Shown: positions 22,801 through 64,000 of the stretch, in pieces
Layout of the letters: each line of letters starts with the position of its first letter
How positions within the stretch are numbered: position 1 is the stretch's first letter
Assembly: GCA_043803805.1 (NCBI GenBank)
Contig: JAZDJP010000084.1
Location: forward strand, 121,462-185,461
DNA: 64,000 nucleotides
From: Planctomycetota bacterium
Lineage (GTDB): Bacteria > Planctomycetota > JAZDJP01
Direction: 5' to 3'
Position numbers and translations under genes: made by a program
The notes under the pieces: generated by a model
Told to the model about the DNA's origin: nothing
Databases searched by the model: none
Seen by the model: only the letters and a program-made list of their open reading frames with translations

Positions 22801-23314
22801 CCGGCGACCTGGGACGAAGGTTATCTATGGGAGAAAGCGGATCCCTCAAATTCGGTTTTTGGGGTTGTTTGACACGGTTGCCTCCTTCGGATGGCCGGGA
22901 AATTCATGGGATCCGTTTATGCGCCTGACCGTTCCATCCAACGTGGAGAATGTCCGTCATGCGGTGGCGCGGGATGAGGTAAGAAGTTTGTTCCCGCTCA
23001 CATCCATGCTCAAGGGGCCGGGTTGGGAGGATCCGACGGGTCGGATATTGGAACAGGTATTTCCGGGGGTACACAGTGATATTGGCGGCGGCTATGACAA
23101 TAATCTGGCTTCCTACGCCCCGCTGCGTTGGATGTGGCAGCAGATGACGGATTGCGGTATTCAAATGGGGGAATTGGACGAAAAGTACACGCAAGACATC
23201 GCAGGTCCAATCGAGTATCATGATTCGCGCTATCGAATGGACAAGTTTCGTTCGGGGTGGCGTCGCTTGTGGGGTGGGACCTACAAACGAAAAATCTACT
23301 ACCAGCGGAAATAG
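13823..23314 (+). CDS. Giant Rhs/YD-repeat lipoprotein (3163 aa) with Ig-like/IPT-TIG and TSP3-like N-terminal domains, an RHS core ending in DPLGL, and a C-terminal DUF2235/Tle1-like lipase toxin domain
   Basis: Lipoprotein signal MLKRIPVAISLVLLVSCGGGG. IPT/TIG-like block VTEVAPAAGAMAGGTALIIQGQGF. Acidic DPSRDSDDDGIADYRDPDP calcium-binding-type repeat. Dozens of YD repeats (YDAAGNR, YAYDARGN, YRYNGLGHL...). RHS-associated core ...YREYSPEMGRWLTPDPAGYVDGQNLYAYYPGPNGVDPLGL. Then a tip with FDGTCND, GFSRGA (GxSxG), FDTVASFG and HSDIGGGY motifs. Marked G+C drop from about 22450 onward. Confidence 0.85.
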   Translation: MLKRIPVAISLVLLVSCGGGGGGGGLSSGDPGGDSDGDGGSAVYLPVAVTVVAPHGIIVTNAGSVTVRVSYVFKSESPAGGSSRETPFARAAASEACRLELLMDGVAVFSRAVDPATNGEATFVLDLTGAVEGTHALAAALSGGGRIIKSADGALVIDRTAPSVDDLEPASGLFTNIRRPVFRGHLMDGFSGPDGDAVEVILDGTTLPGVSVAGEDFTVTPAADLADGAHTVEVRLRDRAGNRYSLERQFTVDTAPPDQSPGLESPAASDGQFLFVVAGARLTVTGALPVDGAGVAVSVPAPVIVAGSGAAGGRWHVDLDGIPAGVSVVTLRAVDRAGNHGPAMNFAITRTTDAISVTEVAPAAGAMAGGTALIIQGQGFTSDTDVRIGGASPGNVRILSPSEIRVVAPAGVEGDAELVVRRPDGAEARLAAAFRYYDPSRDSDDDGIADYRDPDPLVPFVVISDPADGILTNRGFIELSGDVDASAGGVFVRNISMPGAAAAAEMDAGGRFRAAGVPLAAGENIIEARAVDAQGAFAARHRITIRADRTSPGLTLSPPGGRVLDQAPGNVAALAATFTESGFSGGMAPATFRAWRVSWRDLSRVLQSDDDGMIAGILWNLGHLSCDILSLSVTELTGRFSATETGATLTDAGEAGFEKFRKNVVIGIVADKAGNVSFASADYAVDDIRPTAVIQMPVAGGVYPSDQAIPVTVQLADDFSGLNLAGLEVVLNGDDVTSVTGPVLDPPTGGPGTPVLATTLRFNIPAELISPGAKNYLEITGIRDHENNEIAAGVVFVADAIIPCDFINVWSDFSRNEVVVTPGEEDTSVTGQGLFAMGVEGADLGVAGIVLDRISMDTCRLIVTGRRPGVFIWDPFPFMVAGPCAVEELLGVMVKGARFVKAPSPDVISPGVRLGIVEGEILQASGADSTDMATVEFGGVVDDSLGREFEGAGPTVIDGSGRSLPLTAIHYPDHMHTRIDGTVGRETGRYEFRGCFPLRRGRNTLVFRAKNALGRFGVARAGIEVTDRDGDPLTNDFSIRVARVENAAAVEGEIGVAEGYFGAGDDKTLHLRLPRVGGDILLAGTDSAPFAGAVVRSARFVLQREGDVDPAGIMPGLPVFLVRAGDRIEVASAGWTEGTSVRLADLAFAGNGRAASVVQDGASLKITASLGDAELEAYEVVYGPIPSVSASVKSFDSRGIVPPNAAGETPYTQTVTLSRVPGTPVFRSDAVMFQTGSSGAGMRHRMAPEGRITVTADFPPGIPDLSRSVAAGGYRSTLQEAVTGNTPEGGRGVQLHNGEFVYSATDLAGNTAYGPGFAFTRTYRSRIHHDGPLGHGWDHVLNQRMVARDEDGDGDMDVVFYDGSGRRDVFTGDGNGAFLPPPGRYEKWDVAAGEARRLIGDGSVCRYVGLAARPGEYVLDSVTDRWGNRLSLFHDAAGRLVRVNDPHDRDTVLRYEGNGRISEIEDFAGRIVTFTYDAAGDLARVEHPDVDAEGMGHIRPAWRYTYETGDPDPARNHNMTAVTSPRGNGVLENEYDSSDRVVLQRTGPALTEFAYPAGETRVTDPRRQVWKFVWSAGHPELAERIIDPTLAMTYFEHTADLETGVVIRPLGNKIEYRYDIASPNPVKRGNLLETLISPDARGTGGSGAVLRTRLTWTAAADFPGGPGAAEDWNFVKTSEDEAGFVTTYDYDAAGNRVAVRPPGVTLSDGRKDDRTVRYRFNSRGQVEAVRTPDGAMTWHEYYPSNGRPADPSDAEGFHRREIRSVGRGYDIASPVPTNPRESADWLVTEYAMDSRGNCVTVTDETGRASLRVFDALDRSVETLSPPVFGAARNRTRQYFDADGNSVRTVTETPVPRDPGGTAHDVHTSTVTRTVDAWDRVLEVSEDGRVTTYAYDAGGLQIMRRMPSGIRHTTGYDARGLPERDVDGDDDDDAATAPAGARVVEMACDANGNVIGTKENTVPVSEQRHDGYDRLETTRDPRRGALVRQWRDNRGLVTRTAAGSGDAGGNFAQVENDDEYTHNEAGEAWKRRDLARKTADGAPLPPAEFTSDRRIAAGESVSYDPEVADAVTVTRTDGADRTVETNFPDGSRVTRVFNKDNTVAAETLDGSGVAGARDAIRTRTTVYRYNGLGHLVEEERPDGAITRTTRDGAGRAVFVTAPGGRVIHNAFNAKGELLSTTSGWGSAHPITRSFTYDDAGRPASVSQGDLTTEYAYDARGNVAEVRYRLGGGANVETERYLHDSRNRLVTHIRRDGAILAFVYDPDTEHLARVEDGVGRALREFSDFDAAGRPRTIVERNGPGAEDDVTTRKVYNSYGQLARDRQEAFGYFNDVMSYHADGPTNRAGNRTALEYPSGGFAAYYSHTRTNLLEKIGTAPGGQNILRYVHDGFGRIGGFTVNSGGASPVTAEMTRDRNGWLVAMNVGSVGEMALTRNLDGLKTVVERPGVRGAFGYDAHDRLTSAAYAGPGGFGPDEFNLDDLDNRTNGNLVAGTSTDYRITDSTRILDVRTPAGTHAVLYDARGNTIEDDHHRYVWDDFDRLARVENKRARVEFNPWTPVDSVADAPMVDGKNARRITIVYESPKLMNYADVAGIAPENDIRVEFKGGELAGEEIWVRTPVTERGAGPGGIRIEFLNVETAKLRITEIEAGGVPGMAAAVAGLKTVHPWRNIIYAYDGDGRRVAKIADNEKYRYVYDGVQLIEVRRIRDNRLLWQFVYGAAVNEPVAMYDREGGAGYFFVRDDLNSVLALTNAQGQIVEKYEYTAYGETRIIDAITGLARYWDDDADDANHDGRIDAGLPGAGLPATPQVPQTASDAGNPFGYAGMWRDTHTGHYHTLYREYSPEMGRWLTPDPAGYVDGQNLYAYYPGPNGVDPLGLALYAFDGTCNDRSKMKNPTNVAVLWDLYETTNEKGRFYIKGVGTNWWSKVFGGFSGIGAGIRLEKAYESLLENFRNHDETIDIIGFSRGAATALEFANMIATRGIPDESTAKTVADPRRPGTKVIYGRKRIPQIRFLGLFDTVASFGWPGNSWDPFMRLTVPSNVENVRHAVARDEVRSLFPLTSMLKGPGWEDPTGRILEQVFPGVHSDIGGGYDNNLASYAPLRWMWQQMTDCGIQMGELDEKYTQDIAGPIEYHDSRYRMDKFRSGWRRLWGGTYKRKIYYQRK
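22451..23314 (+). other. Polymorphic C-terminal toxin domain of the Rhs protein: DUF2235 / T6SS Tle1-like alpha-beta-hydrolase lipase (sub-feature)
   Basis: Begins directly after the DPLGL autoproteolysis motif (22436-22450). Motifs YAFDGTCND, IIGFSRGAATALEF (nucleophile elbow), LGLFDTVASFG and GVHSDIGGGY. Sequence is conspicuously AT-richer than the upstream 8.6 kb of the same gene. Confidence 0.7.
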
Positions 23315-23321
23315 GAGGAAT

Positions 23322-23679
23322 TATGCGACTTGGCATGGTTGTTGTGTGTGTGTGTGTGGCAGGATGTATGAGTCAAAAATATAGCATCATAGTTAGAAAT
23401 ACGGGCAGCGAGAAAATCACTCATGCCAGCGTGAATTATAATGATTTCAAGTCCGGAGGAGGCAATTTGCTTCCGGGGGGAGGAGCACAGCACGCATGGC
23501 CCGACGAGCCCATCCCTGAGAAAGCGAAAGTGGTGTGGCGTGACGCGAAGGGGGTGGATCACGAGAAGGATGTGGAGGTGAAGAAGAACATTCCGAAGAA
23601 CATCCGCGGGGACAAGGACCTCATATTCGAAATTGGCGATAACGACGATGTCACGATGAAAGTGAAGGCGGTGAAGTAG
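23322..23679 (+). CDS. Small periplasmic lipoprotein; candidate cognate immunity protein for the Rhs lipase tip
   Basis: MRLGMVVVCVCVAGCMSQ... has a lipobox (VAGC). 119 aa, low G+C like the toxin tip, and starts 8 bp after the Rhs stop. Tle immunity proteins are typically periplasmic lipoproteins. The immunity role is inferred from position only. Confidence 0.5.
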
Positions 23680-24052
23680 AGAAGAGGATTTTTCGGGGAA
23701 TCTGGGCATATGTGGTGTGGCGGGGTTCGGGAAGCGTTCTCGCGGGACGCGTGTCGCCGACATCCTGTCGGCTCCGCGCTCGGAGATGCCGCCCCTCCCG
23801 ACGTCCTGTCTCCGCGTGAGCGGGACGTTGTCCCCCGTGCGGCTTCGCCACGGGGGACTCACGTCCCGGGGCGTCATCTACGCCCGCTCACCCGCCTCCC
23901 TCGCCCCGCCATTGCCGCGACCCTCGGCCTCATGGAAACCATGCTTGTCATGGGGGTGGGGAATGACCTTGACCGGTGTTGGCGGGGGCAGTAGCATCCG
24001 GGCGCAGAAGGAGCCGAATACGTTCATCGTTGGGCTCTGAAAGACGGAGGTT

Positions 24053-27000
24053 GTGCCTGTGAGCAACGCGTCGCGTCAACAGGTGGTCGTCGAGGCAGTT
24101 CGTCAATGGCAGACCCGGTTGTTGCAACTTGACCGGCGAAACGCGCTCCTCTACTTCTCGATGGGGAGGCGCGGGATAACACTTCGGAACATCGAACCAA
24201 ACGTTCTTCTCGAACGGCTCGCAACGTCACGCTCGGGGCTCGCGTTCACGTACGCGGAGCAAACCCGCGCGAGCGGTGGCGATCACTTCGACATCCCCGC
24301 AGCGTCCGACGATGCGGAGCTTGAGCCGCAAGTGCGCGTACGCCCCGGTGACCTCGACACGGATCTCGCGCCTCTTGAACTTCAGAAGAGGCTTGGCGCA
24401 CTCAACAGGAGGAGTCGGGAATGGCAGGAGGAGCAAGGACTCAACGTCTTGTTTATCGCGCTCGGTTTCCTGCGCTGGGTGGACGAGGATCAGGAACCGG
24501 CATGTTCGCCGATCCTCCTCGTTTCGTGTGAACTGAAACATGAGTCACCTCGTGATCCATACGCGCTCGTGGGGGAAGATTCTGATGACGCCGTCGTGAA
24601 CCCCACGCTCCGCCACAAACTCACTACGGCGGCAAATATCATCCTTCCCGAGATCGGCGAAGAAACGGTTGCGGAGTACTTGGCCGCGGTCTCGCGTCTC
24701 ATCGCGGGCCGTGAGGGCTGGTCCGTAGAAACAACCATCGTGGTTGCGACTTTTCCTTTCTCTAAACTCGCGATGTGGCAAGATCTCGATCAGATGGCCT
24801 CGACCGGTGTCACTCATCCTCTTGTCTGCCGCCTCGCAGGCGATGCAGATGTGCCCATCGAGGAATCGGAGAGCGGAGCAGTCGCAATCCCGAAGGACGA
24901 TATCCGGCTTCAGGGAGCGAAACTTGATGATCTGCTCGATGTCCGCGATCAACACGCCGTTGTGGATGCCGACTTCAGTCAACTTCGGGCGATCACGCTT
25001 GCGCGGTCGGGGAAGAATCTCGTGATCCATGGTCCACCGGGAACGGGGAAGAGCCAGACAATCGCCAACATTATTGCCACGCTTATCGCCGAGGGGCGTC
25101 GTGTGCTTTTTGTGAGCGAAAAGACGGCGGCGCTTGACGTCGTCAAGCGGCGACTCGCGGACGTCGGACTCGGTGCGTTCTGCCTTGATCTTCATAGTGA
25201 TCGCGGCAAGAAGGCCTCGGTGTATGCACAATTGCGCGAAGCACGGGATCAGCCTTTGGCCGCCGATGCGGATGTGTTTCCCTATGAGCGGTTACTCGCG
25301 CGACGTCACGAACTGAACACTACCGTGAGAGCGCTTCATGAAGTTCGCCAGCCACTCGGCTTGTCTGTTTTTACCGTGCATGGGCGCGTGGCCGCGATTC
25401 GCGAGGTGCCACAAGTAAATGTCCTTGTTCGTGACGTTGCCACCCTCGACGAAGATCGCCTGCGCCGCATCCAAGATGCCGCGCGTAGGATCGCTCGCCG
25501 CATATTGGAGTTTTGCGATCACCACACGAGCCGATGGCGTGCGCTCGGCGCCGTTGCCCCTTCCCCACGCCTAGCGGATGCCATACGTGGTGATCTCATG
25601 GCCATAAGTTCGGCGATCGACTCCATCGTGCGGGTGCTTGCGCGCGCGTCCGCGGCCTGTGGCGTCGATGCGCCGACAACGCTGGTTGAGGCGGAAAATC
25701 TACTGCGTCTGCTCAGTCACCTCATGAATGCTCCGGGATCGGTTCCTGCGCAATGGATCGAGTCCGAGGGGCTGGGACGTGCGCGAGATAGTGGGGACGC
25801 ATTGCGGCAAGAGCTCGCAGATCGGAAAAGATATCTTGATACTCTCTCATCGTCAATCAGCGGCGCACCTCCGGGACTACGAAGCCTCGATTGGCTTGAC
25901 ATCGCGCACGCTGTTGCGGCTGAGGCCACGCGTTGGGCCAGGGTAGCCGGTTCCGAATGGGATACAGTCTTGCTCGCGAACCCCCGGATTTGTGCGACGA
26001 AGTGGAATGACATTTCAACATCACTTGACGCGCATCTCGAAGCGTCGATCCACCTGCAAGTAATGCTAGGTGTTACGCAGCCCAATGATTCGCGCGCGGC
26101 CGCGGAATCAGCTGTGAGCGTTGCCACCCGACTACTACGGATAGGCAAGGTTCCCGTCACGTGGAACAGTTTGGAAGCAACCACCGGAATTTGCTCGGTG
26201 GTCACTGCCGCGCACAAACTTCGCGATGAACTTGTGGCGATGAGGCGAACGCTCGGGAGCCTTTTCGGCCCCGAGATCGTTGAGTGCGTTGACGACAAGA
26301 TGCTCGTTCGATTCCGGACCGACCATCAGTCGTTCTGGCGATGGTTGCGACCGGCGTATCGGCATGACTACAGGATGATCCGAGGTTGTCTCAAACAGCC
26401 CGTGAAGTTATCGCTGGACGCTTGCGTCAAGGCGATCGAGCAATCGTTGGCCGTCCGAAAACTTCGTTCGCGTTGGGCGGAAACGGAGCATCAGCTCCAA
26501 GTTGTTCTCGGTGACCGATTCGCCGGCCTTGAGTCAGATTGGACAGGCATCGAATCCGATCTTGTTGCCGTTGCGGACATCTACCGCGAGTTCCCTGCAC
26601 AGACGGTTGCGATTCGCTCAATTCTCGTGGATGCTCCGACGCTCGCGCTCCTCAACGATGCAATTCGCGCGGTGAAAGAACGCGCAACGGTTCTGGATAC
26701 CATCTGGCCGGAAGGCCTTTCCCATCGAGACGCCCATATTCCGGATATGTCATCTGACGCGCGAGCGTTCGCCAACACTTCGGGAAGGATTGGCGACATC
26801 GTTGATGCTCTCGGTCCCTTTGTGCGGCCTTTGGTCAATCTCGATGGCCTCATCAAGTTGCTGAAGGTCTGCGTGCAACTACAGAAACTCGAAGAGCATG
26901 CCGCTGCGGTTTTTGAAACGCGCTCTCGCGAGATCGGCACACTCTTTTCCGGATGGTCAACGGACTTCGACATATTCAACCGCACGATCGCCTGGACTCA

Positions 27001-29695
27001 AGAGATCGTTGCGCTGATGCGGTGTCCTTTGCCTGAAGGGTTGGTGGATCGCGCAACACGATCGCGTCCGTCGGCAACATACGAAGTTGAGATACGTGCG
27101 GTCATTGAGGCAATTAATCTGTTACGCTCCACCTGTTCTGCCTCGACCTCCATGTTCCCTGAGGCGCAGTGTCCCTGGAAATCCTGGGGACAAGCACCGT
27201 TTGCTGTCGCGCGGGCATGGTGCGATGATCTTTGCGCGCACGCTGACGAGGCCAGCGATTGGGTGGAGTACCGGTCCGCAGTCGAAGATTTGAATAATGA
27301 GATCGGTGCGGAAATGGCTGATGCTCTACGAGCAGCCACGGACGACGGGGAAATGGTTCCCGATATCGTGCTTCGCCACGTGTATATTTCCTGGCTTGAA
27401 TACATCTACCAGGAAGTGCGTGAACTCCGATTCTCGCCGAAAGACTTGGAGGGCACCGTAAAAAAAGAGTTCAGAGAACTCGATGCGCGTCTCCCGCGAG
27501 CGGCGCGCGAACGCGTCCGGGCGAAATGTCTCGCGGCGTATCCCTCGGATCGATCGAACTCGAACGGCATGGGTGAACTCGGAGTGTTGGGCCATGAACT
27601 CTCGAAGCGAAAACGCCTGATGCCCGTTCGCAAGTTGGTGGCAAGGATTCCCAACTTGCTCCAACGGTTGAAACCCTGTTTTATGATGAGTCCATTGGCC
27701 GTGAGTCAGTACCTGCCGCGTGGCGTCACTGACTCCGACACCTTGGTCTTCGACGCGGTAATCTTCGACGAGGCTTCGCAGATCTTTCCGGAAGATGCGA
27801 TTCCCGCGATCGCGCGTGGTCGCCAGTGTATCGTCGTCGGCGACCAGCAACAACTTCCCCCTTCCAGTTTCTTCCGGAGCGAAGATGTAGTGGATGAAGA
27901 TGGCGAAGCGACGACGGACAATCGTTTGCTCGATGTCGAGAGCATCCTCGACGTTCTGGTCGGGATGCGCGGGGCTGGTGTGGACGATGTCCATTTGCAG
28001 GTGCATTACCGGAGTCAGCATGACGACCTGATTCGGTATTCGAACCACTACTTTTACGACGACCGACTGCTGACATTCCCCTCCGCTTTGGGCACTTGTA
28101 AAGGCTTGGGGATTCGATCCGTCTATTTACCAGAGGGACGTTTCGAAGCCGGTGGAAGCAGGACGAACCGGGTGGAGGCGGAACAGGTCGTTCGCATCGT
28201 ATTCGAGTTGATGGAAACGCAACCCCCGATCGAGAGCATCGGTGTCGTTGCGTTGTCGCGGCCGCAGGCGGACCTCATCCAGGAGTTGATCGATCAGTAT
28301 CGGTTGTCGGACCGGCGATTCGACGAACGGTTTTCCGATGAGATGCACGAACGTTTCTTCGTGAAGAACTTGGAGAACGTTCAGGGGGATGAACGAGATC
28401 ATGTTATCTTGAGCATTGGGTACGGTCCGACAACGGCCTCGGGCGCTGTGCCCAATCGGTTCGGTCCAATCAACGTTGAGGGTGGACATCGGCGTCTGAA
28501 CGTGGCTGTGAGCCGCGCTAGGAGAAGTATCACGGTTGTGCACTCGCTTCGCCCGGAAGACATTCACTCCGAGGTGGAGGGGGCCAGGTTGCTTCGCCGC
28601 TACCTTGAGTTCCTTAGAAGCGGCGAGGCGTCAATTGAAGGCGTTGTGAATTCATCACCCGGCGGTGAAGCCGAGAGCCCGTTCGAGGATGCCGTGGGTC
28701 GCGCGTTGGAGCGATTGGGATATCGCATCGCACGCCAAGTGGGATGCGCGAAGTACTCGATCGATATCGCGGTCAAATCCGAGGACGGGAGCGGGTTCGA
28801 CCTTGCGATCGAGTGCGATGGCGCCGCCTATCACAGATCACCGAGTGCGCGAGATCGTGACCGGTTGCGTCAGGAGATTCTTGAACGCATGGGATGGCAG
28901 GGGCGAATTCATCGTGTCTGGTCGACGGCATGGATTCGAAACCCGAAAGCAGAACTTGCTGCGATTGAACATGCCATACGTGAAGCGCGTTCCGCACCAC
29001 GCGGGGGGCATACGTCAGCAAGCCTTCGCTTTGAAGTGCCGCCGAAGACACAGACTGCGACGCGTCAGGAAGGACATATCACCCCCAATCCATCTTCCGC
29101 GATGCCAGCGATAGAACGCCCACTGCTCGCAACCTATGTGAAAGTGGATCTGGATTGCTTCGCTAACGTCACCGATTTGAGACAGGTGCCTTCGTCACGA
29201 GTTGCGGATATGATTGATGTTGTCGTGAAAGTGGAGGGTCCCGTCCACGTCGATATAGTAGTCGAACGCATTCGGCGCCACTATCGGTTCGGTCGTGCAG
29301 GACGGCTCGTTCGAGACGCGGTACTGGCGGGATTGAAGGTGGCGCTTCGACGCGGAACCGTTCTGTGGTTGCCTCTGCTGGTCTCCAACAAGCAAAGGAG
29401 TGACTTCCTCGTCGTGGCCGCGGATCTGGAGATTGTGCCCCGCGGCCCCTTGCAGGATGGGACAGTGCGAGATATTGACCATCTCTGTGATGATGAGATC
29501 GAGGTTGCCGTGGTGCGTGTCGTGCGTGCGATGGTTGGCGCGACGAAGAACGAGGTGGTCACAACAACAGCTCGCGCGTTAGGCTATGCTCGAATTAGCG
29601 ACCACATCGAAAAACGTATATGCAAGTCAGTCGACCGGCTAATTGAGACGCGGAAACTTGTCGAACGGGTAGGTTCCTTGGTGTTGTGTGATTGA
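24053..29695 (+). CDS. 1880-aa DUF4011 / SF1 (Upf1-like AAA_11+AAA_12) helicase / Vsr-DUF559-like endonuclease / DUF3320 protein; Hhe-like candidate antiphage defence protein
   Basis: GTG start with the GGAGG-containing stretch gacggagg 7 bp upstream. DUF4011 hallmark LLQLDRRNALLYF. Walker A LVIHGPPGTGKSQTIAN. Walker B/motif III VIFDEASQ...CIVVGDQQQLPP. Motif IV HYRSQ, motif V NVQGDERDHVILSIGYG, motif VI LNVAVSRAR. Nuclease block YSIDIAVKSEDGSGFDLAIECDGAAYHRSPSARDRDRLRQEILERMGWQGRIHRVWSTAW. DUF3320-like tail. G+C is lower than the flanks. Confidence 0.8.
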   Translation: MPVSNASRQQVVVEAVRQWQTRLLQLDRRNALLYFSMGRRGITLRNIEPNVLLERLATSRSGLAFTYAEQTRASGGDHFDIPAASDDAELEPQVRVRPGDLDTDLAPLELQKRLGALNRRSREWQEEQGLNVLFIALGFLRWVDEDQEPACSPILLVSCELKHESPRDPYALVGEDSDDAVVNPTLRHKLTTAANIILPEIGEETVAEYLAAVSRLIAGREGWSVETTIVVATFPFSKLAMWQDLDQMASTGVTHPLVCRLAGDADVPIEESESGAVAIPKDDIRLQGAKLDDLLDVRDQHAVVDADFSQLRAITLARSGKNLVIHGPPGTGKSQTIANIIATLIAEGRRVLFVSEKTAALDVVKRRLADVGLGAFCLDLHSDRGKKASVYAQLREARDQPLAADADVFPYERLLARRHELNTTVRALHEVRQPLGLSVFTVHGRVAAIREVPQVNVLVRDVATLDEDRLRRIQDAARRIARRILEFCDHHTSRWRALGAVAPSPRLADAIRGDLMAISSAIDSIVRVLARASAACGVDAPTTLVEAENLLRLLSHLMNAPGSVPAQWIESEGLGRARDSGDALRQELADRKRYLDTLSSSISGAPPGLRSLDWLDIAHAVAAEATRWARVAGSEWDTVLLANPRICATKWNDISTSLDAHLEASIHLQVMLGVTQPNDSRAAAESAVSVATRLLRIGKVPVTWNSLEATTGICSVVTAAHKLRDELVAMRRTLGSLFGPEIVECVDDKMLVRFRTDHQSFWRWLRPAYRHDYRMIRGCLKQPVKLSLDACVKAIEQSLAVRKLRSRWAETEHQLQVVLGDRFAGLESDWTGIESDLVAVADIYREFPAQTVAIRSILVDAPTLALLNDAIRAVKERATVLDTIWPEGLSHRDAHIPDMSSDARAFANTSGRIGDIVDALGPFVRPLVNLDGLIKLLKVCVQLQKLEEHAAAVFETRSREIGTLFSGWSTDFDIFNRTIAWTQEIVALMRCPLPEGLVDRATRSRPSATYEVEIRAVIEAINLLRSTCSASTSMFPEAQCPWKSWGQAPFAVARAWCDDLCAHADEASDWVEYRSAVEDLNNEIGAEMADALRAATDDGEMVPDIVLRHVYISWLEYIYQEVRELRFSPKDLEGTVKKEFRELDARLPRAARERVRAKCLAAYPSDRSNSNGMGELGVLGHELSKRKRLMPVRKLVARIPNLLQRLKPCFMMSPLAVSQYLPRGVTDSDTLVFDAVIFDEASQIFPEDAIPAIARGRQCIVVGDQQQLPPSSFFRSEDVVDEDGEATTDNRLLDVESILDVLVGMRGAGVDDVHLQVHYRSQHDDLIRYSNHYFYDDRLLTFPSALGTCKGLGIRSVYLPEGRFEAGGSRTNRVEAEQVVRIVFELMETQPPIESIGVVALSRPQADLIQELIDQYRLSDRRFDERFSDEMHERFFVKNLENVQGDERDHVILSIGYGPTTASGAVPNRFGPINVEGGHRRLNVAVSRARRSITVVHSLRPEDIHSEVEGARLLRRYLEFLRSGEASIEGVVNSSPGGEAESPFEDAVGRALERLGYRIARQVGCAKYSIDIAVKSEDGSGFDLAIECDGAAYHRSPSARDRDRLRQEILERMGWQGRIHRVWSTAWIRNPKAELAAIEHAIREARSAPRGGHTSASLRFEVPPKTQTATRQEGHITPNPSSAMPAIERPLLATYVKVDLDCFANVTDLRQVPSSRVADMIDVVVKVEGPVHVDIVVERIRRHYRFGRAGRLVRDAVLAGLKVALRRGTVLWLPLLVSNKQRSDFLVVAADLEIVPRGPLQDGTVRDIDHLCDDEIEVAVVRVVRAMVGATKNEVVTTTARALGYARISDHIEKRICKSVDRLIETRKLVERVGSLVLCD

Positions 29696-55349: not shown

Positions 55350-55399
55350 CCGGCGGGCGCGGCGCTACGGCGGCGCACGAAGCCGCCGGGAGAGAAAAG

Positions 55400-55470
55400 T
55401 TGCCCCGCTAGGATTCGAACCTAGACCACCTGGTTCAGAGCCAGGTATCCTACCATTAGACGACAGGGCA
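55400..55470 (-). tRNA. tRNA-Gln (anticodon CTG)
   Basis: Reverse complement reads TGCCCTGTCGTCTAATGGTAGGATACCTGGCTCTGAACCAGGTGGTCTAGGTTCGAATCCTAGCGGGGCAA. 7-bp acceptor with one G-U pair, anticodon loop CTCTGAA, T-arm GGTTCGAAT. Confidence 0.75.
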
Positions 55471-57860: not shown

Positions 57861-59762
57861 TCACGCGGTGGACCGCCGCATTTCCTCCTGACGGTGGCGG
57901 AGTTCCGTGAGGAGGGACTGGGCGCGTCGGGTCCACCAGCTTTGTTCCGCGATGGAAAGGAAGGCCTGAAGGGCTCCCACGGATCGTTCGAGGCGCGCCG
58001 CCGCCCCGAAATCCAGATGGGATTCATCGGGCGGCAGGCGGCAGGCGGCGGCGATCCCCCAGCAGGCCGCGACGTGGCGCGAGTCGAGTTTTCGCGCGCG
58101 GTCGAAGCAGGCCAGGGCCTTTGGGAAGTCGTCCTTCATCCACAGCAGGCATCCGAGCCGGTGGTAATCCTCGGCGCCGGCCTCGCGGCCGTTGCATCGG
58201 GCGCGGAACTCCTCCAGAATCTCGGCCCGGCGCGCAAGCGAGATTCCCCGGAGCTCCCGGGGAATCATGGGGCCGCGGGTGGAGGGGGCGATTTTGGCCT
58301 CGAACCACGTCCGGATTTCCCCCGGAAGCACCGGCTGCCCCGCGGCCTCGCGCGTGGCCCAGGTGGTGTAGGCCCGGACGAATGTCCGGATCTGGGCCTG
58401 AACCGACCGGGCCATCCCTCCGAGCCGGCCCCAAGGGATGTCATCCGTAAAACTCCGCCAGATCTGGCCTTCGTTCAGGGATTTGTCCACGTCGCGGCGA
58501 TAGAGGGCCAGCGCGTACGCCGAGGCCTCGAGAAGGCTCTTGGGGCTGGTCCGCGGGATGATGAGGACATTCGAGCGGAAATCGTAGGAGCCGTTGCCGA
58601 TGCCCGGGGTGATGACGACCGCCGGCCGGCCGTCGCGTTCCACCTTCCGGTTGGCGAAGAGGCCGGGATCGAAGTCCTCGACACGGCGGATGGCCTCGAT
58701 CACGGCGGCGGCGGAGTTGAGATCCCGGTTCTGGAGGAGGGCGGGGCTCGCGGTGGTCCGTCCCCAGCGGCTGCACAGGGTGATGTCCTCGCGGATCTCG
58801 GCCAGGCGCATCTCCAGTTCAGCCCGGCGGCGGGGAAGCAGTGCAACCGCGGTCGCCTGAAGTTCCGTCAGGGCGACGTTGGTGTCCTCGAGCTTCCGAT
58901 GATGTTGGACGGCGGCAAGTTTGAGTTTGTAGATGCGGTCGTTCAGGGCCTCCAGGGGCCGGCCGGACGGCCCGATGTGGTGGAGGATCTGGCGCCGTTT
59001 CTCCCGGGCGTCGTGGAGGGCCGAGAGGAGCCAGGCGTATTCGCGCATCTGCTCGCCGGGGAGCCCGCCGCTCTTCTTCGTCACCTCCATGTTCGCCAGG
59101 GTTACCACGGACCCGTCGATGAACCGGTCGAGCTCGGTCAGTTTTCCGCGTTCAAAGGGCGGGAGCGCCCCTTCGGCGTTGAAGCGTTGGGTGATGCCGG
59201 TGGACACCTCATGGGCGAGAGTTTCCAGGAGCTGGCGAAGTTCGGCCACCTCCTCGGCGAGCTTCCGGCGTTGGGGCAGGAGGAGGAGGTTGGCGTCGGC
59301 CACCGCGAGGTGCTGGCGGAGGCCGCGCGTCGTGTAGACGGGGTCGCGAAACTCCCCTTCCGATATCAATTTTTCCGGGGGGAAAAGGCGCGGGTCCACC
59401 CAGCCGAAGTCGAAGAGTTTTTCATCGTCGGGTCCGAACACGAGTTCGTCCGGGGGGCTTGAGGACACGACGTCGTTCAGACGCGCCAGAAGCCGCCGCC
59501 AGTACTCGTTATTGATCCGTTCCCGGCAGGCGCGTTCGGCGTTGGCGTAATCATCGTCCCGCAGTTCCTCCGGGACGGCCCGGAGTTCCAGGTATTCATC
59601 CAGGAGTTCATCGAGTGGTTCGGGCTCGGCGGAATCGGATTCCGGAGGGGTCTCATCGGCGGGGGAATCCGCTTCCAGAGGCGATTCCTCCGGAGGCGGG
59701 GCGGATGCCGGAACCGGATCCATGGGACGCTCGTCGGACGTGTTGAATTTGTCGGTAGTCAT
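57861..59762 (-). CDS. Hypothetical protein with an acidic, Pro/Glu-rich N-terminus
   Basis: 633-aa ORF with normal (non-shadow) amino-acid composition. No recognisable catalytic motif. Confidence 0.45.
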   Translation of the reverse strand: MTTDKFNTSDERPMDPVPASAPPPEESPLEADSPADETPPESDSAEPEPLDELLDEYLELRAVPEELRDDDYANAERACRERINNEYWRRLLARLNDVVSSSPPDELVFGPDDEKLFDFGWVDPRLFPPEKLISEGEFRDPVYTTRGLRQHLAVADANLLLLPQRRKLAEEVAELRQLLETLAHEVSTGITQRFNAEGALPPFERGKLTELDRFIDGSVVTLANMEVTKKSGGLPGEQMREYAWLLSALHDAREKRRQILHHIGPSGRPLEALNDRIYKLKLAAVQHHRKLEDTNVALTELQATAVALLPRRRAELEMRLAEIREDITLCSRWGRTTASPALLQNRDLNSAAAVIEAIRRVEDFDPGLFANRKVERDGRPAVVITPGIGNGSYDFRSNVLIIPRTSPKSLLEASAYALALYRRDVDKSLNEGQIWRSFTDDIPWGRLGGMARSVQAQIRTFVRAYTTWATREAAGQPVLPGEIRTWFEAKIAPSTRGPMIPRELRGISLARRAEILEEFRARCNGREAGAEDYHRLGCLLWMKDDFPKALACFDRARKLDSRHVAACWGIAAACRLPPDESHLDFGAAARLERSVGALQAFLSIAEQSWWTRRAQSLLTELRHRQEEMRRSTA

Positions 59763-59942
59763 CGGGGCGGCCGCCTTGATTATACCTCATCGCCCGTGCC
59801 ATGCCAAGAAAGTGATATGCAGTTCAGGGATTTTCGACCCCGGCGCGGCCGTCGGCGCGGTTGGGGACGGCACAATAATCCGGGGGGATGTCTTACACCC
59901 GAAACATATCCCAGCGGACAAGTAAGAAATCATGTCGTCGCA

Positions 59943-60473
59943 ATGAGTGTGGTATGGTTAATAACGGGATTGGCGTGTGGGATGACCATTGTCGTTTCAG
60001 GGATTAATTCGTCGCCACGTAAAGTGTTTGAACGGTTGGTAAGCGAATTAGCGGTCAAGAATGTTGTGGTTGAGGAAGTGTACGGGATGAAAACCATCAG
60101 ATGGGCCGAGTGGTACTTACGGTTTAAAAGTGATGACGGAGATTCGTTGAAGAAGATGCAAGAGCATGGGTATGTTGAATGGGGTTATCCCGATTACGTC
60201 AAAGCGATGAGACAATCTAGAATGTTGGGGAAGAAGTTACTCTCGGAAGGTGCTTGTAGTCAGATATATGCAAAAGCGTTCGGATACGATGGAAAATTTA
60301 TTGTGAGAGGCGTGAACGGTGAATTGATGTTCTACAACATATACGGTTCCCTGAATGAGTTGCCGATACCGGAGGGAAAGCCTATCCCGCCTTGCGGGCC
60401 GAGCGGAACGGACGGTGCCATCACAACAACACCCGCCTCCCGTGACAACGCTCCCGCAGGGGAGGGGAAGTGA
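59943..60473 (+). CDS. Small membrane-anchored hypothetical protein (low G+C)
   Basis: MSVVWLITGLACGMTIVVSGINSS signal anchor. 176 aa. Base composition is clearly AT-richer than the surroundings. Confidence 0.45.
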   Translation: MSVVWLITGLACGMTIVVSGINSSPRKVFERLVSELAVKNVVVEEVYGMKTIRWAEWYLRFKSDDGDSLKKMQEHGYVEWGYPDYVKAMRQSRMLGKKLLSEGACSQIYAKAFGYDGKFIVRGVNGELMFYNIYGSLNELPIPEGKPIPPCGPSGTDGAITTTPASRDNAPAGEGK

Positions 60474-60507
60474 GGGTGGGGTTGGTTGTCGGTTGCTTCA
60501 GCGATTC

Positions 60508-60532
60508 TCCGCCTTCAAACGTCGTTTGAACG
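60508..60532. repeat. Palindromic element copy 1 (tCCGCCTTCAAACG-T-CGTTTGAACGC)
   Basis: A perfect 8-bp inverted repeat TTCAAACG/CGTTTGAA around a single central base, with conserved GC-rich flanks. It is 35 bp downstream of the small membrane-protein gene. Confidence 0.6.
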
Positions 60533-60616
60533 CCGCTCCCCGGAATCCGGGGACCATGCTTACGAGATTTCCGTAAAATCGCGGACTGACCGCCATTTCC
60601 CGTCGCCGTGGACACA

Positions 60617-60643
60617 TCCCGCCTTCAAACGACGTTTGAACGC
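60617..60643. repeat. Palindromic element copy 2 (TCCCGCCTTCAAACG-A-CGTTTGAACGC)
   Basis: The same element 84 bp after copy 1. Its right arm continues straight into the recombinase-remnant reading frame. Confidence 0.6.
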
Positions 60644-60832
60644 ACACATATCTTCCGCCACACCTGCGCCACGCTGATGCTCGAAAACGGGGCGGATGTC
60701 CGTTTCGTGCAGGCGCAACTGGGCCATGAGAAACTGGACACGACCATGCTCTACACCCATGTGGCGATTAATATGCTCAAGGAAGTCCACCGCAGGACGC
60801 ATCCGGCGGGGAGGGAGGAGGGGAAGACGTGA
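60620..60832 (+). pseudogene. 3' remnant of a tyrosine recombinase (XerC/XerD/phage-integrase family) gene
   Basis: Translates ...[44 protein letters not shown]..., i.e. the HxxRH...LLGH...Y catalytic C-terminal box only. There is no upstream core or N-terminal domain. Confidence 0.6.
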
Positions 60833-60875
60833 GGGGCTGGACCTGCTTCAAAATCGTGGCAGGGGTATGCGGGAA

Positions 60876-60884
60876 TGCTATAAT
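60876..60884 (+). promoter_or_regulatory. Extended -10 promoter element (TGcTATAAT)
   Basis: tgctataat lies 8 bp upstream of the ATG at 60892. Confidence 0.3.
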
Positions 60885-60891
60885 ACAGCCA

Positions 60892-61368
60892 ATGAAGAAA
60901 CTGAAACTCTACGTCGAGACGAGCGTGTGGAGCCACCTGCTGGCGGAGGATGCGCCGGAGTCGCGGGCGGCGACGGAGGCGTTCTTCCGGGAAATCGGAC
61001 AATATGAGATTTACATTTCACAGCTGGTGAAGATTGAAATCGGGAATACGCGGGATGCTCGGAAGCGGGAGGCCTTGAGTCAACTGGTTCAGCAATATGG
61101 ACCCGTTGAAATCGAATTGACGGACGAGGCTGCCGCATTGGCGCGAAGGTATTTGGATGAGGGGGTTGTTGCGAGAAGCGCGAAGGACGATGCGTTGCAT
61201 GTGGCAACGGCGACGGTCGAGGAACTGGATGTGATTGTGAGCCTGAACATGCGCCATATCGTGTCGCTCAAAACACGCAGGGGCATTAACGCGGTCAATG
61301 CGCTGGCGGGATATCGTCCTATTGAAATCGCAACGCCGCAGGAGGTGGCGATTCATGGAGAAGATTAA
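60892..61368 (+). CDS. PIN-like domain protein; candidate toxin of a TA pair
   Basis: MKKLKLYVETSVWSHLL...EIYISQLVKIEI...AKDDALHVATATVEELDVIVSLN has the spacing of the PIN acidic residues, with Glu in place of the first Asp. 158 aa. Confidence 0.4.
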   Translation: MKKLKLYVETSVWSHLLAEDAPESRAATEAFFREIGQYEIYISQLVKIEIGNTRDARKREALSQLVQQYGPVEIELTDEAAALARRYLDEGVVARSAKDDALHVATATVEELDVIVSLNMRHIVSLKTRRGINAVNALAGYRPIEIATPQEVAIHGED

Positions 61369-61534
61369 GGAATCGAAGGTCATGGTGGAGTTGGAGGAGA
61401 TGCGGGCGCGGCATGCGAAAGAACTGGAAGGTCTCACGGATGCCGAATGCGTGGCGCGGTACAAGCAGGAAGCAGAGGCGGCGCAGCGTGTTCTGAAATG
61501 GAACCTTCCCGTTTTGGCCCGGTCGCGTCGGTAG
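61355..61534 (+). CDS. Small helical protein overlapping the PIN-like gene end; candidate antitoxin or partner
   Basis: MEKIKESKVMVELEEMRARHAKELEGLTDAECVARYKQEAEAAQRVLKWNLPVLARSRR, 59 aa. It overlaps the PIN-like gene stop by 14 bp. Confidence 0.3.
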   Translation: MEKIKESKVMVELEEMRARHAKELEGLTDAECVARYKQEAEAAQRVLKWNLPVLARSRR

Positions 61535-61546
61535 AATGTTGCGATT

Positions 61547-62005
61547 GTGGCGAGGGAAGCAGTAAGGCCGGGGAAAATCCTCATGCTCGTCGGAATCGCC
61601 TCCGGGAAAAATTCGATGCGCGCCCGGAAAATCGCCTCTGGGAAAATTTTCGCGGTCCTTGTCGGATTTCTCGGTGTTGTTTCGATGCAACCTCAAGCGT
61701 TGCCTCAGGAAAATGTGTATACGATTACGATTTCGGCGTCAGGCCGTTTAATCTATCCCGATTCCGGCGTGGTGGCGTACACGTACGATTTGGATGGGAA
61801 ATTGGAGACTCGGACGGACCAGAAGGGCCAGGTCACGACGTATTCATATAATAATCGCGACCTCCTCACCACCAAAGTCTACGACGACGGCGGCGCGAAC
61901 GAGGGGACGCAGACGTTTACGCATGATTCCTTGCGGAGGATGACGGGGAACACCGACGATAACAGCGGCAATAAAGATGTCACGGCCTCCTTCATGCGGC
62001 ACTAG
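61547..62005 (+). pseudogene. Orphan N-terminal fragment of a YD/Rhs-repeat protein
   Basis: Signal-like KIFAVLVGFLGVVSMQPQA followed by YTYDLDGKLETRTDQKGQVTTYSYNNRDLLTTKVYDDGG YD repeats, then a stop after about 150 aa. Confidence 0.45.
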
Positions 62006-62123
62006 GGGACGTACATGAAATTATGACAATCTCTGATTGAAGGACACGGTGGCTGAGACAATGTGTGCTGATGTCGCCGCGGCCGCGCGGGGTTTTCCCC
62101 GACATCCGAGGCATCCGTTTTGT

Positions 62124-64000
62124 TCAAGACGCCGTTTCATCCGCTTCGCATTTTCGCATGGGCGCGAATCCGGTCACGAGCCGCTTTTCCCCGTGGCCGC
62201 GGAACCGGATGCGCACCTTCGCCCTGGCTCCAAATCCCTCGACCGTGAGGATCCGGCCGAAGCCGTATATGTCATGGCGGACGAGATCTCCGACACGGTA
62301 GGCGTTTTCGTCCTCGACGTCGTCCAGAGCCAGGGAATCGCGGTGGATCTCCGGCGGTTGGGACGCGGGCGTATCGAGTCCCGGGAAGGGGTCGGCGAGA
62401 TCCTGGAGATCGAGTTCCTCCCGGGGGAGTTCCCGCAGAAAACGCGACTCGGGGTTCCGGAATCCGCCGCCGCCGAACCGGTCGCGCGTCACCGCGAAGG
62501 TGAGGGCGAGGTGCTGTTTCGCCCGGGTCATCCCGACGAACAACAACCGGCGCTCCTCCTCGATCTCGACGTCGGAATTCACCGATCGGGAATGCGGGAG
62601 AAGGCCCTCCTCGAGTCCCGTGACGAAGACCGCGGGGAATTCCAGCCCTTTCGACGTGTGGAGGGTCATGAGGGACACCGCCGGGGCGTCCGGGTCCAGT
62701 TTGTCCGCGTCCGAGACAAGCGTCACGACGTCCAGAAATCCCTCGATTCCGGCCTCGGGGTTCTGCCGCTCGAACTCCTCGCAGGCGCGGACGAGTTCCC
62801 GGACGTTCTCCACGCGGTCCTCCGCGGCGGCATCCCCGAATTCCTTCAGGTATTTCTCGAATTCCGTCTCCTGGAGGATCTGCTTGAGGAGGAGGGAAGG
62901 CCCCTTGTCGCGTCCCACGCCGAGTTTCACGAGGAGATTGTCAAGGGCGGCGGCGGCCTTGACGGCGGAGGATTTCAGCCCCTCGACCCGGCGGACCTGG
63001 GGGATCGCCGCGCGCAGGGGAATGCCCGTTGCGGCGGCGTGACGCTTCAAGGCCTCCACCGAGGTCTTCCCGATGCCGCGGGTGGGGACGTTGATGATCC
63101 GTTCCATGGCCAGGTCGTCCGCCGGATTCACCAGGCACCGGAGGTACGCGAGGAGATCCTTGATTTCCCGGCGGTGGTAGAATTCGGTGCCGCCGATGAT
63201 GCGGTAGGGGATGCCGGAATCGCGCAGGCCCTCTTCGAGCGACCGCGACTGGGCGTTTGTCCGGTAGAACACGGCGATGCCGGAGGGCGGGATCCCGGCG
63301 GAAAGGAATCCCGCGACGCGTTCGGCGATGACGCGCGATTCATGTCGGGCGTCCTGACAGCGGAGGACCTCGACGGGGGCGCCCGTCTCGTTTTCGGTGA
63401 AGAGGGTCTTCTCCAGGCGGCCGGCGTTGTTCTCGATGAGGCGCTGGGCGGCGGCCAGGATTTTCGCGGTCGAGCGGTAATTCCGTTCGAGTTTCACCAC
63501 CTTCGTCTCGGGATAATCCTTTGTGAAATCGAGGATGTTCCCGAGGTCGGCCCCGCGCCAGCCGTAGATGGACTGGTCGGGATCCCCCGTGACGCAGAGG
63601 TTCCGGTGGGCCTCCGCCAGGCGTTGCGCGATGAGGTATTGGGGCCGGTTCGTGTCCTGATATTCGTCCACGAGGATGTAGCGGAAACGCGTCTGACAGG
63701 CGCGGAGGGCTTCCGGGTCCTTGTCGAACAGGATGAGGAGTTTCATGAGGAGGTCGTCGAAATCCAGGGCCTTGCGGGCGGCGAGGACTTCCTCGTAGCG
63801 GGCGTAGAGGCGGGCGATCAGACGGTCGGGATGACTCGCGGCGCGTTCGGCGAACTGCGCCGGGAGGACAAAGGCGGTTTTCGCCTGGCTGATGGCCTGG
63901 GCGGCGGCGGCGGGCTTGAGGGTCTCCGCCGGGATGTCGAAATCCTTCAGGATGTCCCGGAGGGTTCCGAGGGTGTCGTCGGTGTCGTAGATGGACAACT
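62124..64000 (-). CDS. ATP-dependent DNA helicase UvrD/PcrA family (partial; N-terminus beyond the window edge)
   Basis: UvrD motifs FRYILVDEYQDTN, VTGDPDQSIYGWRGA, ERNYRST, TLHTSKGLEFPAVFV and VGMTRAKQHL. The frame is open to the window end. Confidence 0.8.
   Translation of the reverse strand, partial: LSIYDTDDTLGTLRDILKDFDIPAETLKPAAAAQAISQAKTAFVLPAQFAERAASHPDRLIARLYARYEEVLAARKALDFDDLLMKLLILFDKDPEALRACQTRFRYILVDEYQDTNRPQYLIAQRLAEAHRNLCVTGDPDQSIYGWRGADLGNILDFTKDYPETKVVKLERNYRSTAKILAAAQRLIENNAGRLEKTLFTENETGAPVEVLRCQDARHESRVIAERVAGFLSAGIPPSGIAVFYRTNAQSRSLEEGLRDSGIPYRIIGGTEFYHRREIKDLLAYLRCLVNPADDLAMERIINVPTRGIGKTSVEALKRHAAATGIPLRAAIPQVRRVEGLKSSAVKAAAALDNLLVKLGVGRDKGPSLLLKQILQETEFEKYLKEFGDAAAEDRVENVRELVRACEEFERQNPEAGIEGFLDVVTLVSDADKLDPDAPAVSLMTLHTSKGLEFPAVFVTGLEEGLLPHSRSVNSDVEIEEERRLLFVGMTRAKQHLALTFAVTRDRFGGGGFRNPESRFLRELPREELDLQDLADPFPGLDTPASQPPEIHRDSLALDDVEDENAYRVGDLVRHDIYGFGRILTVEGFGARAKVRIRFRGHGEKRLVTGFAPMRKCEADETAS

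Follow-up and report, generated by a model that had tools for sequence, protein, structure and literature searches.

A conserved, putative toxin-antitoxin pair in a debris-filled islet between a TPR gene and pcrA of a Planctomycetota genome

This work describes a small islet of ∼2.4 kb (∼59,810-62,120) flanked by a TPR gene and pcrA in a Planctomycetota MAG (locus tags V1809_). Positions are those of the window, i.e., the whole 64-kb (64,000-nucleotide) stretch of DNA that was analyzed. As genome debris, the islet is ordinary apart from one mildly unusual toxin pair: a gene for a VapC-like PIN-domain protein and a 59-aa ORF downstream of it, which, by the sequence comparisons given below, form a real and conserved toxin-first two-gene module. 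With moderate confidence, we read the islet as the remains of one or more horizontally acquired mobile elements, in which the PIN pair is the sole intact unit and is probably alive. The findings have no bearing on any long-standing open question; their main value is a cleaned-up annotation, in which a dead recombinase stub, an rhs scrap, and perhaps an ORFan are set apart from the probably live PIN pair.

Setting and composition of the islet

The islet is flanked on the left by a host-like gene for a 633-aa TPR protein (57861..59762, minus strand; Pfam TPR; 66.7% GC) and on the right by the 3′ part of pcrA/uvrD (62124..63998, minus strand; NCBIfam PcrA, E = 3e-184; 65% GC), which extends past the end of the window. 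A promoter-like site ahead of the TPR gene (TTGGCA-17-TATAAT, 59779..59807, minus strand; 11/12, a consensus match only) places the left border of the islet to the right of ∼59810. All islet ORFs are co-oriented, and their composition sets them apart from the flanking genes: GC content is 49-59% and GC3 is 0.55-0.78 within the islet, versus 65-67% and 0.82-0.84 in the flanks. GC3 is also uneven from one islet part to the next (0.55, 0.78, 0.65, 0.72, and 0.76), which points to several origins.

An earlier, sequence-only reading of this DNA had listed five features here: a membrane protein, a pair of palindromes, a recombinase frame, a PIN-like ORF with a small partner, and a YD-repeat fragment. 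All five were recovered, with coordinates exact or within 2 nt, and the interpretation of the region as a degraded integrative element is supported by the foreign composition, the truncated recombinase, the surviving PIN pair, and the truncated YD ORF.

The TPR protein has no relative in the genome contig collection and a single one in metagenomes (43% identical, non-syntenic, and without an adjacent pcrA). No empty-site comparator for the islet was found via TPR-protein relatives in genome and metagenome contigs, and a search at the islet for an attL/attR repeat gave none. A tRNA-linked island was rejected, as the nearest tRNA gene (Gln, 55399-55470) is kept apart from the islet by ordinary genes; an RNA element was likewise set aside, as the Rfam search gave only a sub-threshold chance match. 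Defense-system models (PADLOC) had no match, and no immunity-protein domain was detected in searches with Pfam, NCBIfam, and PADLOC.

The PIN gene and its small downstream partner

The PIN gene (60892..61368, plus strand) is preceded by an extended -10 promoter-like site (GTGGCA-17-TGcTATAAT, 60856..60884, plus strand), located past the stop codon of the recombinase scrap. It encodes a 158-aa VapC-like protein, a putative toxin, which scores 32.6 bits on the Pfam PIN model (cutoff, 23.6). The 59-aa partner ORF, a putative antitoxin (61355..61534, plus strand), overlaps the PIN ORF by 14 nt. The extended -10 element, the PIN-like ORF, and the overlapping small ORF had all been picked out from the sequence, and the Pfam score confirms the assignment.

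The acidic residues of the PIN domain (E/D9, E49, D100, and D113) are kept in 11 homologues. The AlphaFold2 (AF2) model has a pLDDT of 91.9, and its best folds in the PDB are VapC toxins: Mycobacterium tuberculosis VapC11, VapC15, and VapC20, together with Shigella and Rickettsia VapC, at TM scores of 0.55-0.72. Solved VapC proteins share only 10-21% sequence identity with the islet protein, and searching PDB sequences by profile with the latter retrieved nothing. The partner has no Pfam, NCBIfam, or PDB family match.

The pair was found in 12 loci in unrelated contexts, some of them mobile, with the two genes overlapping or abutting in each; the toxin-type pair noticed in the sequence-only reading is thus both intact and conserved. 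The partner measures about 51-78 aa across loci and always lies downstream of the PIN gene. Neighbors of the pair elsewhere are radical-SAM, DUF1963, or phage structural genes, and the closer homologues (L042-L047) do not adjoin recombinases.

In a VapBC type II system, the antitoxin gene is expected upstream, and its product carries an N-terminal DNA-binding domain of the AbrB, RHH, Phd, or MerR type. The islet pair resembles VapBC in its PIN fold, its conserved acidic residues, and its organization as a small two-gene operon with overlapping genes. It departs from VapBC in its toxin-first order and in its partner of ∼51-78 aa, in which no DNA-binding domain is recognizable. There is no small ORF upstream of the PIN gene; the promoter-like site directly follows the recombinase scrap. 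The toxin and antitoxin roles proposed here are putative, and the module is mildly unusual. One lead that emerges is a PIN-toxin family with a conserved small downstream partner outside known antitoxin families.

The recombinase scrap and the paired palindromes

Upstream of the PIN promoter-like site lies what is left of an XerC-type tyrosine recombinase gene, a 3′ scrap (60644..60832, plus strand) in which positions 60647-60808 correspond to residues 273-326 of a 362-aa relative. The sequence-only reading had left room for a frame lacking any profile similarity; searched with profiles, the reading frame 60608-60832 matches positions 128-169 of the 172 in Pfam Phage_integrase (PF00589) with E = 6e-14 and positions 273-331 of the 365 in the NCBIfam XerC subfamily model NF002331. 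Only box II HxxR, the LGH motif, and the catalytic Tyr are present (HIFRH...LGH...LYTHV); the N-terminal core-binding domain and the box I Arg are missing, and residues 1-272 of full-length relatives have no match anywhere in 59500-62300. Of the suggested candidates XerC and IntI, the scrap fits XerC models better: it scores 95 bits on NF002331, versus a family cutoff of 371, and 51 and 34 bits on IntI models, although the IntI-specific insertion would sit in the deleted part. On these alignments, the frame is a 3′ remnant, a pseudogene that we consider non-functional. GenBank accessions pass directly from MFH1023676 (the ORFan) to MFH1023677 (the PIN protein), so no protein is annotated at the scrap.

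The left edge of the scrap coincides with a repeated site. Two copies of a 25-nt imperfect palindrome, with the consensus CCGCCTTCAAACG[T/A]CGTTTGAACGC, were found in the window: copy 1 (60509..60533) reads CCGCC-TTCAAACG-T-CGTTTGAA-CGC, and copy 2 (60619..60643), in the same (direct) orientation, abuts the recombinase scrap with its right edge. The copies are identical at 24/25 positions and lie 85 bp apart (110 bp from start to start); 0/100 shuffled sequences gave such a paired match. The palindromes reported by the sequence-only reading are therefore real, with coordinates (60508-60532 and 60617-60643) that were off by 1-2 nt and a spacing of 84 bp that becomes 85 bp. That reading also had the recombinase frame start inside the second palindrome and encode only the C-terminal catalytic box. 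The latter holds, but the GTG of the frame lies upstream of copy 2; the recombinase homology itself begins 4 nt beyond this copy, in keeping with a truncation precisely at the palindrome.

No third copy was present in the window when up to 3 mismatches were allowed (≤3), and neither the rest of the islet nor its borders contain a half-site. Both copies sit in a single intergenic gap and bracket no gene. Exact-pattern scans for the palindrome gave 0 matches in genome contigs, 0 in metagenome contigs, and 33 in IMG/VR. Of the latter, 32 come from the same conserved coding segment of a gut-phage gene, whose flanks are unrelated to those in the islet, and the remaining one is single and unrelated. 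A widespread repeat was rejected on this basis, the IMG/VR matches being coincidental. Plasmid blastn searches with 60500-60650 returned only chance-level matches (E ≥ 1), and no conserved lox-like palindromes were found near related recombinases. Copy searches over the window and the genome-contig, metagenome-contig, and plasmid collections thus gave neither further copies nor the cassette-like bracketing suggested in the sequence-only reading.

Intrinsic terminators combine a GC-rich stem and a 3-8 nt loop with a T tract; the islet palindrome has an AT-rich 8-bp stem, a 1-nt loop, and no T tract, and a scan of 59600-62300 gave no terminator-like site, so the proposal of terminator-like boundaries was dropped. 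A perfect GC-rich hairpin, TCCCCGGAATCCGGGGA (60537..60553), directly follows copy 1 and likewise has no T tract behind it. Integron cassette boundaries are attC sites with RYYYAAC ... GTTRRRY cores; the palindrome reads CGTTTGAAC rather than GTTRRRY, and neither copies nor half-sites occur between the other ORFs, and an attC assignment was rejected. The palindromes are best read as candidate sites for protein binding or crossover; alternatively, a tendency of this DNA to form hairpins may have seeded a break.

Relatives of the recombinase provide a context for the scrap. The NF002331 recombinases of plasmids and integrative elements, e.g., WP_247322188.1 from Pseudomonas aeruginosa pPA1609-475 (residues 273-326 of which are 70% identical to the scrap), have a toxin-antitoxin (TA) pair directly 3′ of the gene, as does the islet scrap; unlike those genes, the islet copy is reduced to roughly its final quarter, with no primase gene upstream. 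A TA pair lies directly 3′ of the recombinase-family gene in 5 of the 8 distinct loci examined, three of which hold 3′ scraps. Full-length or frameshifted members stand upstream of a RelE/antidote pair (L048) and of a 73-aa ORF with HicA (L001-L006), and scraps other than that of the islet stand beside a ParE pair next to rpsB/tsf (L050) and beside a Gp49/HI1420 pair (L051). A CHC2/Toprim primase precedes the recombinase in L048, L049, and L065. The recurrence of XerC-type stubs beside TA pairs is a second lead and fits the idea of addiction modules outliving their carrier elements. The break points of the three scraps (residues 273, 274, and 279) nearly coincide, probably through a bias of the search, which was word-indexed and retrieved no protein outside the range of 48-130 aa. 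An 8-mer common to the scrap junctions of the islet and L050, ACGTTTGA, failed in DNA alignment.

In the Tn3 family, TA pairs are embedded beside site-specific recombinase genes and their res sites (PMC7157771). The islet shares with these modules a TA pair adjoining a recombinase gene and short repeated palindromic sites close by, but it has neither a Tn3-type transposase nor terminal repeats; its recombinase is XerC-type rather than TnpI, TnpR, or TnpS/T, and its palindromes stand where the 5′ part of the gene was deleted, unlike the res/irs sites of the Tn3 family.

Origin of the islet and its separate fragments

In the scenario that we favor, mobile DNA settled into the space bounded by the pcrA stop codon and the TPR-gene promoter and was then eroded. 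The surviving unit would be a self-promoted, toxin-first, addiction-type module, in which the gene for the VapC-like PIN nuclease is translationally coupled to that of a helical, 59-aa partner whose C-terminal tail is basic. The most likely vehicle of this module was an element of the form [primase]-[XerC-type recombinase]-[toxin-antitoxin pair]. Subsequently, a deletion would have taken out about the first three-quarters of the recombinase gene together with whatever stood upstream, its left end falling exactly at one of the two direct copies of the 25-nt palindrome; deletions entering the TA pair would have tended to be counter-selected, leaving the pair and a short recombinase stub. A common origin of the scrap and the TA pair, and addiction as the reason for survival, are what we infer from this arrangement. 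The two need not share one element, because the closer PIN homologues are not found beside recombinases, and selection on the pair does not need the scrap, as the PIN promoter lies downstream of the scrap stop codon.

Two alternatives were considered. The pcrA-TPR gap could be a hot spot that collected unrelated fragments by separate illegitimate recombinations, such that no single element ever carried both the scrap and the PIN pair. The heterogeneous GC3, the radical-SAM, DUF1963, or phage structural (and not recombinase) neighbors of the PIN pair elsewhere, and an rhs scrap that clearly came from a different locus of the same genome are consistent with this account, against which stand the co-orientation of all islet ORFs and the TA pairs directly 3′ of recombinase-family genes or scraps in the majority (5/8) of loci; we regard it as possible, though doubtful. 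Alternatively, the 135-bp segment from palindrome 1 to palindrome 2 may be a non-autonomous MITE/REPIN-like element that inserted in the recombinase gene, with an adjacent deletion following. Its 25-nt terminal repeats are self-complementary and 91% complementary to each other, the recombinase junction is flush with the repeat, and a target duplication is absent, as an adjacent deletion would predict. REP, REPIN, and MITE sequences are, in general, expected in many dispersed copies, with inverted doublets or termini. The islet holds the only two copies in 64 kb, with no other in any collection searched, and the repeats are direct (24/25) rather than terminal inverted (21/23), because the CCGCC left and CGC right flanks face the same way in both copies. 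Within the window and these collections, the palindromes do not match an element of this type, and we consider such an insertion quite unlikely.

A further possibility concerns gene capture: the palindromes would be cassette junctions of an integron- or rAID-like array served by the now-truncated recombinase, and the short genes of foreign composition would have been taken up as cassettes. A tyrosine-recombinase remnant does have four co-oriented short ORFs of unusual GC beside it, the 25-nt site allows a reading with 8-nt arms flanking a 7-nt spacer, and the two copies, when single-stranded, can base-pair with each other and enclose a hairpin. An rAID system is recognized by a tyrosine recombinase accompanied by short genes in a common orientation, with conserved motifs in the intergenic spaces (bioRxiv 10.1101/2025.05.03.651265). 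In the islet, three short ORFs (55-58% GC, in a genome of ∼65% GC) lie downstream of the recombinase scrap and share its orientation, but this recombinase is dead and belongs to another family and phylum; rAID would also predict orphan immunity genes and motifs between successive genes, neither of which the islet has. Both sites fall in one gap, whereas the remaining gaps and the islet borders lack even half-sites, and no GTTRRRY core is present. In addition, the scrap favors XerC over IntI models, no immunity-protein domain was detected by Pfam or NCBIfam, the fold z-score is only -2.1, and genome, metagenome, and plasmid collections hold no further copy. The cassette array proposed in the sequence-only reading is therefore very unlikely. 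A long shot, in our estimate, is a broader version, in which the 25-nt sites are crossover sites of an undescribed XerC-driven gene-capture or resolution system in Planctomycetota, with the islet as a disabled example, and in which, separately, the PIN protein and its ∼55-78-aa partner form an uncharacterized toxin-first family with a new kind of antitoxin.

Under the favored scenario of an eroded mobile element, the ORFan and the rhs scrap would be separate debris. The 176-aa ORF (59943..60473, plus strand; GenBank V1809_09850, annotated as 163 aa) has the lowest GC content in the islet (48.8%; GC3, 0.55), and its 20 N-terminal residues are hydrophobic, which agrees with its earlier description as an AT-richer membrane protein. 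It has no homologue among 5.8 billion proteins except its own database record and no match in Pfam, NCBIfam, PADLOC, or PHROGs, and its AF2 model is unusable (pLDDT, 36.6). As a piece apart from the PIN module, it is perhaps dead.

The YD ORF (61583..62005, plus strand; RHS_repeat, E = 3e-7) is 140 aa long from its ATG, or 152 aa from a GTG. It is composed of a signal-peptide-like leader unrelated to rhs (61583-61753, plus strand), which contains a 36-bp direct repeat (61594-61649), and an internal rhs/YD scrap of 240 bp (61754-61993, plus strand; residues 58-137), followed by 3 codons and a stop. Like rhs orphan fragments, it is a truncated YD-repeat piece. Classical rhs orphans consist of C-terminal toxin tips and an immunity gene; the islet piece is instead an internal repeat scrap with neither, and pcrA follows 118 bp past its stop codon. 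A search with the YD ORF gave 11,312 matches to YD proteins. The rhs-derived stretch is 83-85% identical at the protein level to V1809_04055 and MFH1022539 (another contig of the same MAG) and aligns to internal positions of both paralogues. The ORF had been described as a 150-aa N-terminal YD fragment with a signal peptide and as an Rhs 5′ orphan: the RHS repeat, the signal-like start, and the truncation stand, but the rhs part is internal rather than 5′. Its suggested role as a recombination partner for the large rhs gene 40 kb upstream (13823-23314) also fell away, as the two share no DNA similarity and the close relatives lie on another contig. Judged by these alignments, an rhs locus in another part of this genome is shown to be the source of the copied scrap.

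Setting and composition of the islet

The islet, which spans ~59,810 to 62,120 of the window, is ordinary mobile-DNA debris holding one probably live, putative toxin-first PIN module. It lies between two minus-strand genes, a 633-aa TPR gene (57861 to 59762) and the 3′ end of pcrA/uvrD (stop at 62124). Because the TPR gene has a strong promoter-like site at 59807 to 59779, the left border was placed to the right of ~59810. Every ORF of the islet reads on the plus strand, and GC content drops from 65 to 69% outside to 44 to 58% across the islet. GC3 is 0.82 to 0.84 for the flanking genes, 0.55 for a 176-aa ORFan (59943 to 60473), 0.78 for a recombinase scrap, 0.65 for the PIN gene, 0.72 for its 59-aa partner ORF, and 0.76 for an rhs scrap. 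The five features listed in the sequence-only reading were all found, and its proposal of a degraded integrative element is supported.

The ORFan is 100% identical to a GenBank hypothetical protein, V1809_09850 (MFH1023676), encoded on a 185,672-bp contig. Its own database record was the only match in a search of 5.8 billion proteins. No protein family matched it, and its structural model was unusable.

Recombinase scrap and palindromes

As claimed from sequence alone, the islet contains a recombinase-type frame with a significant profile match (Pfam Phage_integrase, positions 128 to 169 of 172; E = 6e-14). The best NCBIfam model is XerC subfamily NF002331 (positions 273 to 331 of 365) at 95 bits (cutoff, 371); integron integrase (IntI) models scored only 51 and 34 bits. 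In full-length relatives from Pseudomonas and Janthinobacterium plasmids (362 and 357 aa), residues 273 to 326 correspond to 60647 to 60808 at 70% identity; no other part aligns, and residues 1 to 272 are unmatched anywhere in 59500 to 62300. Given this confinement, recombinase homology begins 4 nt past the second of two palindromes, consistent with the suggested truncation at a palindrome. The scrap retains HxxR, LGH, and Tyr. Box I and the core-binding domain are missing, and given what is established about this family, the scrap cannot be active. GenBank protein accessions run from the ORFan to the PIN protein without a gap, so no protein is annotated at the scrap. No other recombinase gene was found within the 64-kb window.

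The palindromes are copies of a 25-nt repeat, CCGCCTTCAAACG[T/A]CGTTTGAACGC, at 60509 to 60533 and 60619 to 60643, with a perfect 8+1+8 palindrome as core. The repeat gave 0 matches in 100 shuffles, has no third copy within the 64-kb window even allowing 3 mismatches, and was not seen as a repeat in genome, metagenome, and plasmid collections. Between the copies, a GC-rich hairpin (60537 to 60553) constitutes a third perfect palindrome. It is one of three similar CCCCGG...CCGGGG palindromes in the window (the others at 1568 to 1586 and 58242 to 58266), which are probably chance palindromes of a GC-rich genome.

Several roles for the repeat were weighed. A terminator scan ruled out terminators. 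Cassette boundaries were likewise rejected, as both copies share a single gap and half-sites are absent elsewhere in the islet and at its borders; the earlier notions of a cassette array and of terminator-like cassette boundaries are not supported. Inverted termini are contradicted by asymmetric flanks that face the same way, the copies matching at 24/25 positions as direct repeats versus 21/23 as inverted ones. Exact matches to the 21-nt core in 32 related gut-phage contigs (L008 to L040, from the IMG/VR virus collection) all map to a single conserved segment of coding sequence whose flanks are unrelated, and were dismissed as coincidence. The 110-bp spacing of the copies (about 10.5 helical turns) and a site layout readable as 8-nt arms flanking a 7-nt spacer would both be in keeping with a dimeric protein, possibly a recombinase, binding there. 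Both copies are able to pair as single-stranded DNA, with a fold z-score of only −2.1. Since both arms of the second copy are whole, the deletion crossover did not fall within it; the break lies just outside, which fits palindrome-stimulated breakage.

Bare 3′ scraps also occur at two comparison loci, L050 (5001 to 5736; residues 274 to 327), beside a ParE pair and adjoining rpsB/tsf, and L051 (5001 to 5861; residues 279 to 330), where the scrap has a Gp49/HI1420 pair beside it and a giant CdiA-like gene upstream. Because these scraps likewise adjoin toxin-antitoxin pairs, a recombinase stub with a toxin pair is a recurring arrangement. Both are of the same recombinase family as the window scrap, in otherwise unrelated DNA, and neither junction has a palindrome. 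Hits from the word-indexed search were all short proteins (48 to 130 aa), so the search is biased to fragments, although the contexts it gave are still informative; the near-identical break zone of the three scraps is probably an artifact of it rather than a hot spot. In other loci, a RelE/antidote pair (L048) or a 73-aa ORF and HicA (L001 to L006) lie directly 3′ of the recombinase. The order CHC2/Toprim primase, recombinase, small variable genes was found in L048, L049, and L065. The primase and the XerC-type recombinase form an operon-like unit (L048, 3185 to 4922; L049, 324 to 4261; L065, 106 to 4303), found on megaplasmids and metagenome contigs, and the variable genes after it include RelE/antidote, VbhA antitoxin, and Imm26 immunity protein.

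The PIN pair

The PIN gene (60892 to 61368) encodes a 158-aa protein that clears the Pfam PIN threshold and is 100% identical to GenBank MFH1023677, on that same 185,672-bp contig, part of a Planctomycetota metagenome-assembled genome (MAG). Homologues at 42 to 66% identity, including a 66% identical paralogue in this MAG, keep E/D9, E49, D100, and D113. In an AlphaFold model (pLDDT, 91.9), the closest folds are VapC toxins (TM, 0.55 to 0.72); a PDB sequence-profile search with the protein gave no matches. The 59-aa partner ORF (61355 to 61534) has counterparts of 51 to 78 aa overlapping or abutting the PIN stop codon at every locus with enough sequence (L042, L043/44, L045/46, and eight IMG/VR contigs). 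These partners can be aligned and have in common an Arg that hardly varies, together with an L(S/T)xxE motif; they matched no known family or structure. Neighbors vary between loci (radical SAM, DUF1963, or phage structural genes), and an extended −10 promoter-like site lies at 60856 to 60884, shortly after the stop codon of the scrap. We interpret the pair as an addiction module of VapC-like, toxin-first type that is mobile, with presumed toxicity and neutralization. Of the toxin-type passengers proposed earlier, the PIN pair is supported as a putative toxin pair, and the Rhs 5′ orphan is not supported.

Distant PIN relatives (28 to 39% identity) occur on virus-like IMG/VR contigs (L054 to L064), nearly always followed by a 51- to 78-aa ORF alignable with the 59-aa partner. 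Because of this, the putative toxin-first pair forms a broad and apparently undescribed family.

The YD ORF and other atypical segments

Residues 58 to 137 of the YD ORF (61583 to 62005), encoded by 61754 to 61993, are 83% identical to residues 104 to 183 of V1809_04055 (490 aa) and 85% identical to residues 85 to 164 of MFH1022539 (822 aa, partial), both on one 36.6-kb contig of the same MAG. The ORF stops 3 codons beyond the end of this homology. No close homologue was found for its first 57 residues, which contain a 36-bp direct repeat: a 20-nt sequence at 61594 to 61613 and 61630 to 61649, 36 bp start to start, encodes IASGK twice and resembles a short tandem duplication. At the DNA level, the scrap shows no similarity to the large rhs gene of the window (13823 to 23314); to the 3163-aa product of that gene there is just a generic 33% YD-repeat match. 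Because the paralogue matches are internal and DNA similarity to the large gene is absent, the scrap is not the 5′ orphan that had been suggested, nor does it partner that gene in recombination; judged from these alignments, the YD ORF is an internal rhs scrap joined to an unrelated leader.

The 3163-aa Rhs protein itself comprises Big_13, TIG, DUF6531, RHS repeats, and a Tle1-like phospholipase C terminus, and GC falls to 55 to 57% at the 3′ end of its gene. Directly after it, on the opposite strand, is a 192-aa ORF (23299 to 23877) with no family match. Another compositionally atypical segment, of 56 to 60% GC, holds the gene at 24053 to 29695, whose 1880-aa product carries DUF4011, an AAA_11/AAA_12 helicase, an MTES_1575 nuclease, and DUF3320.
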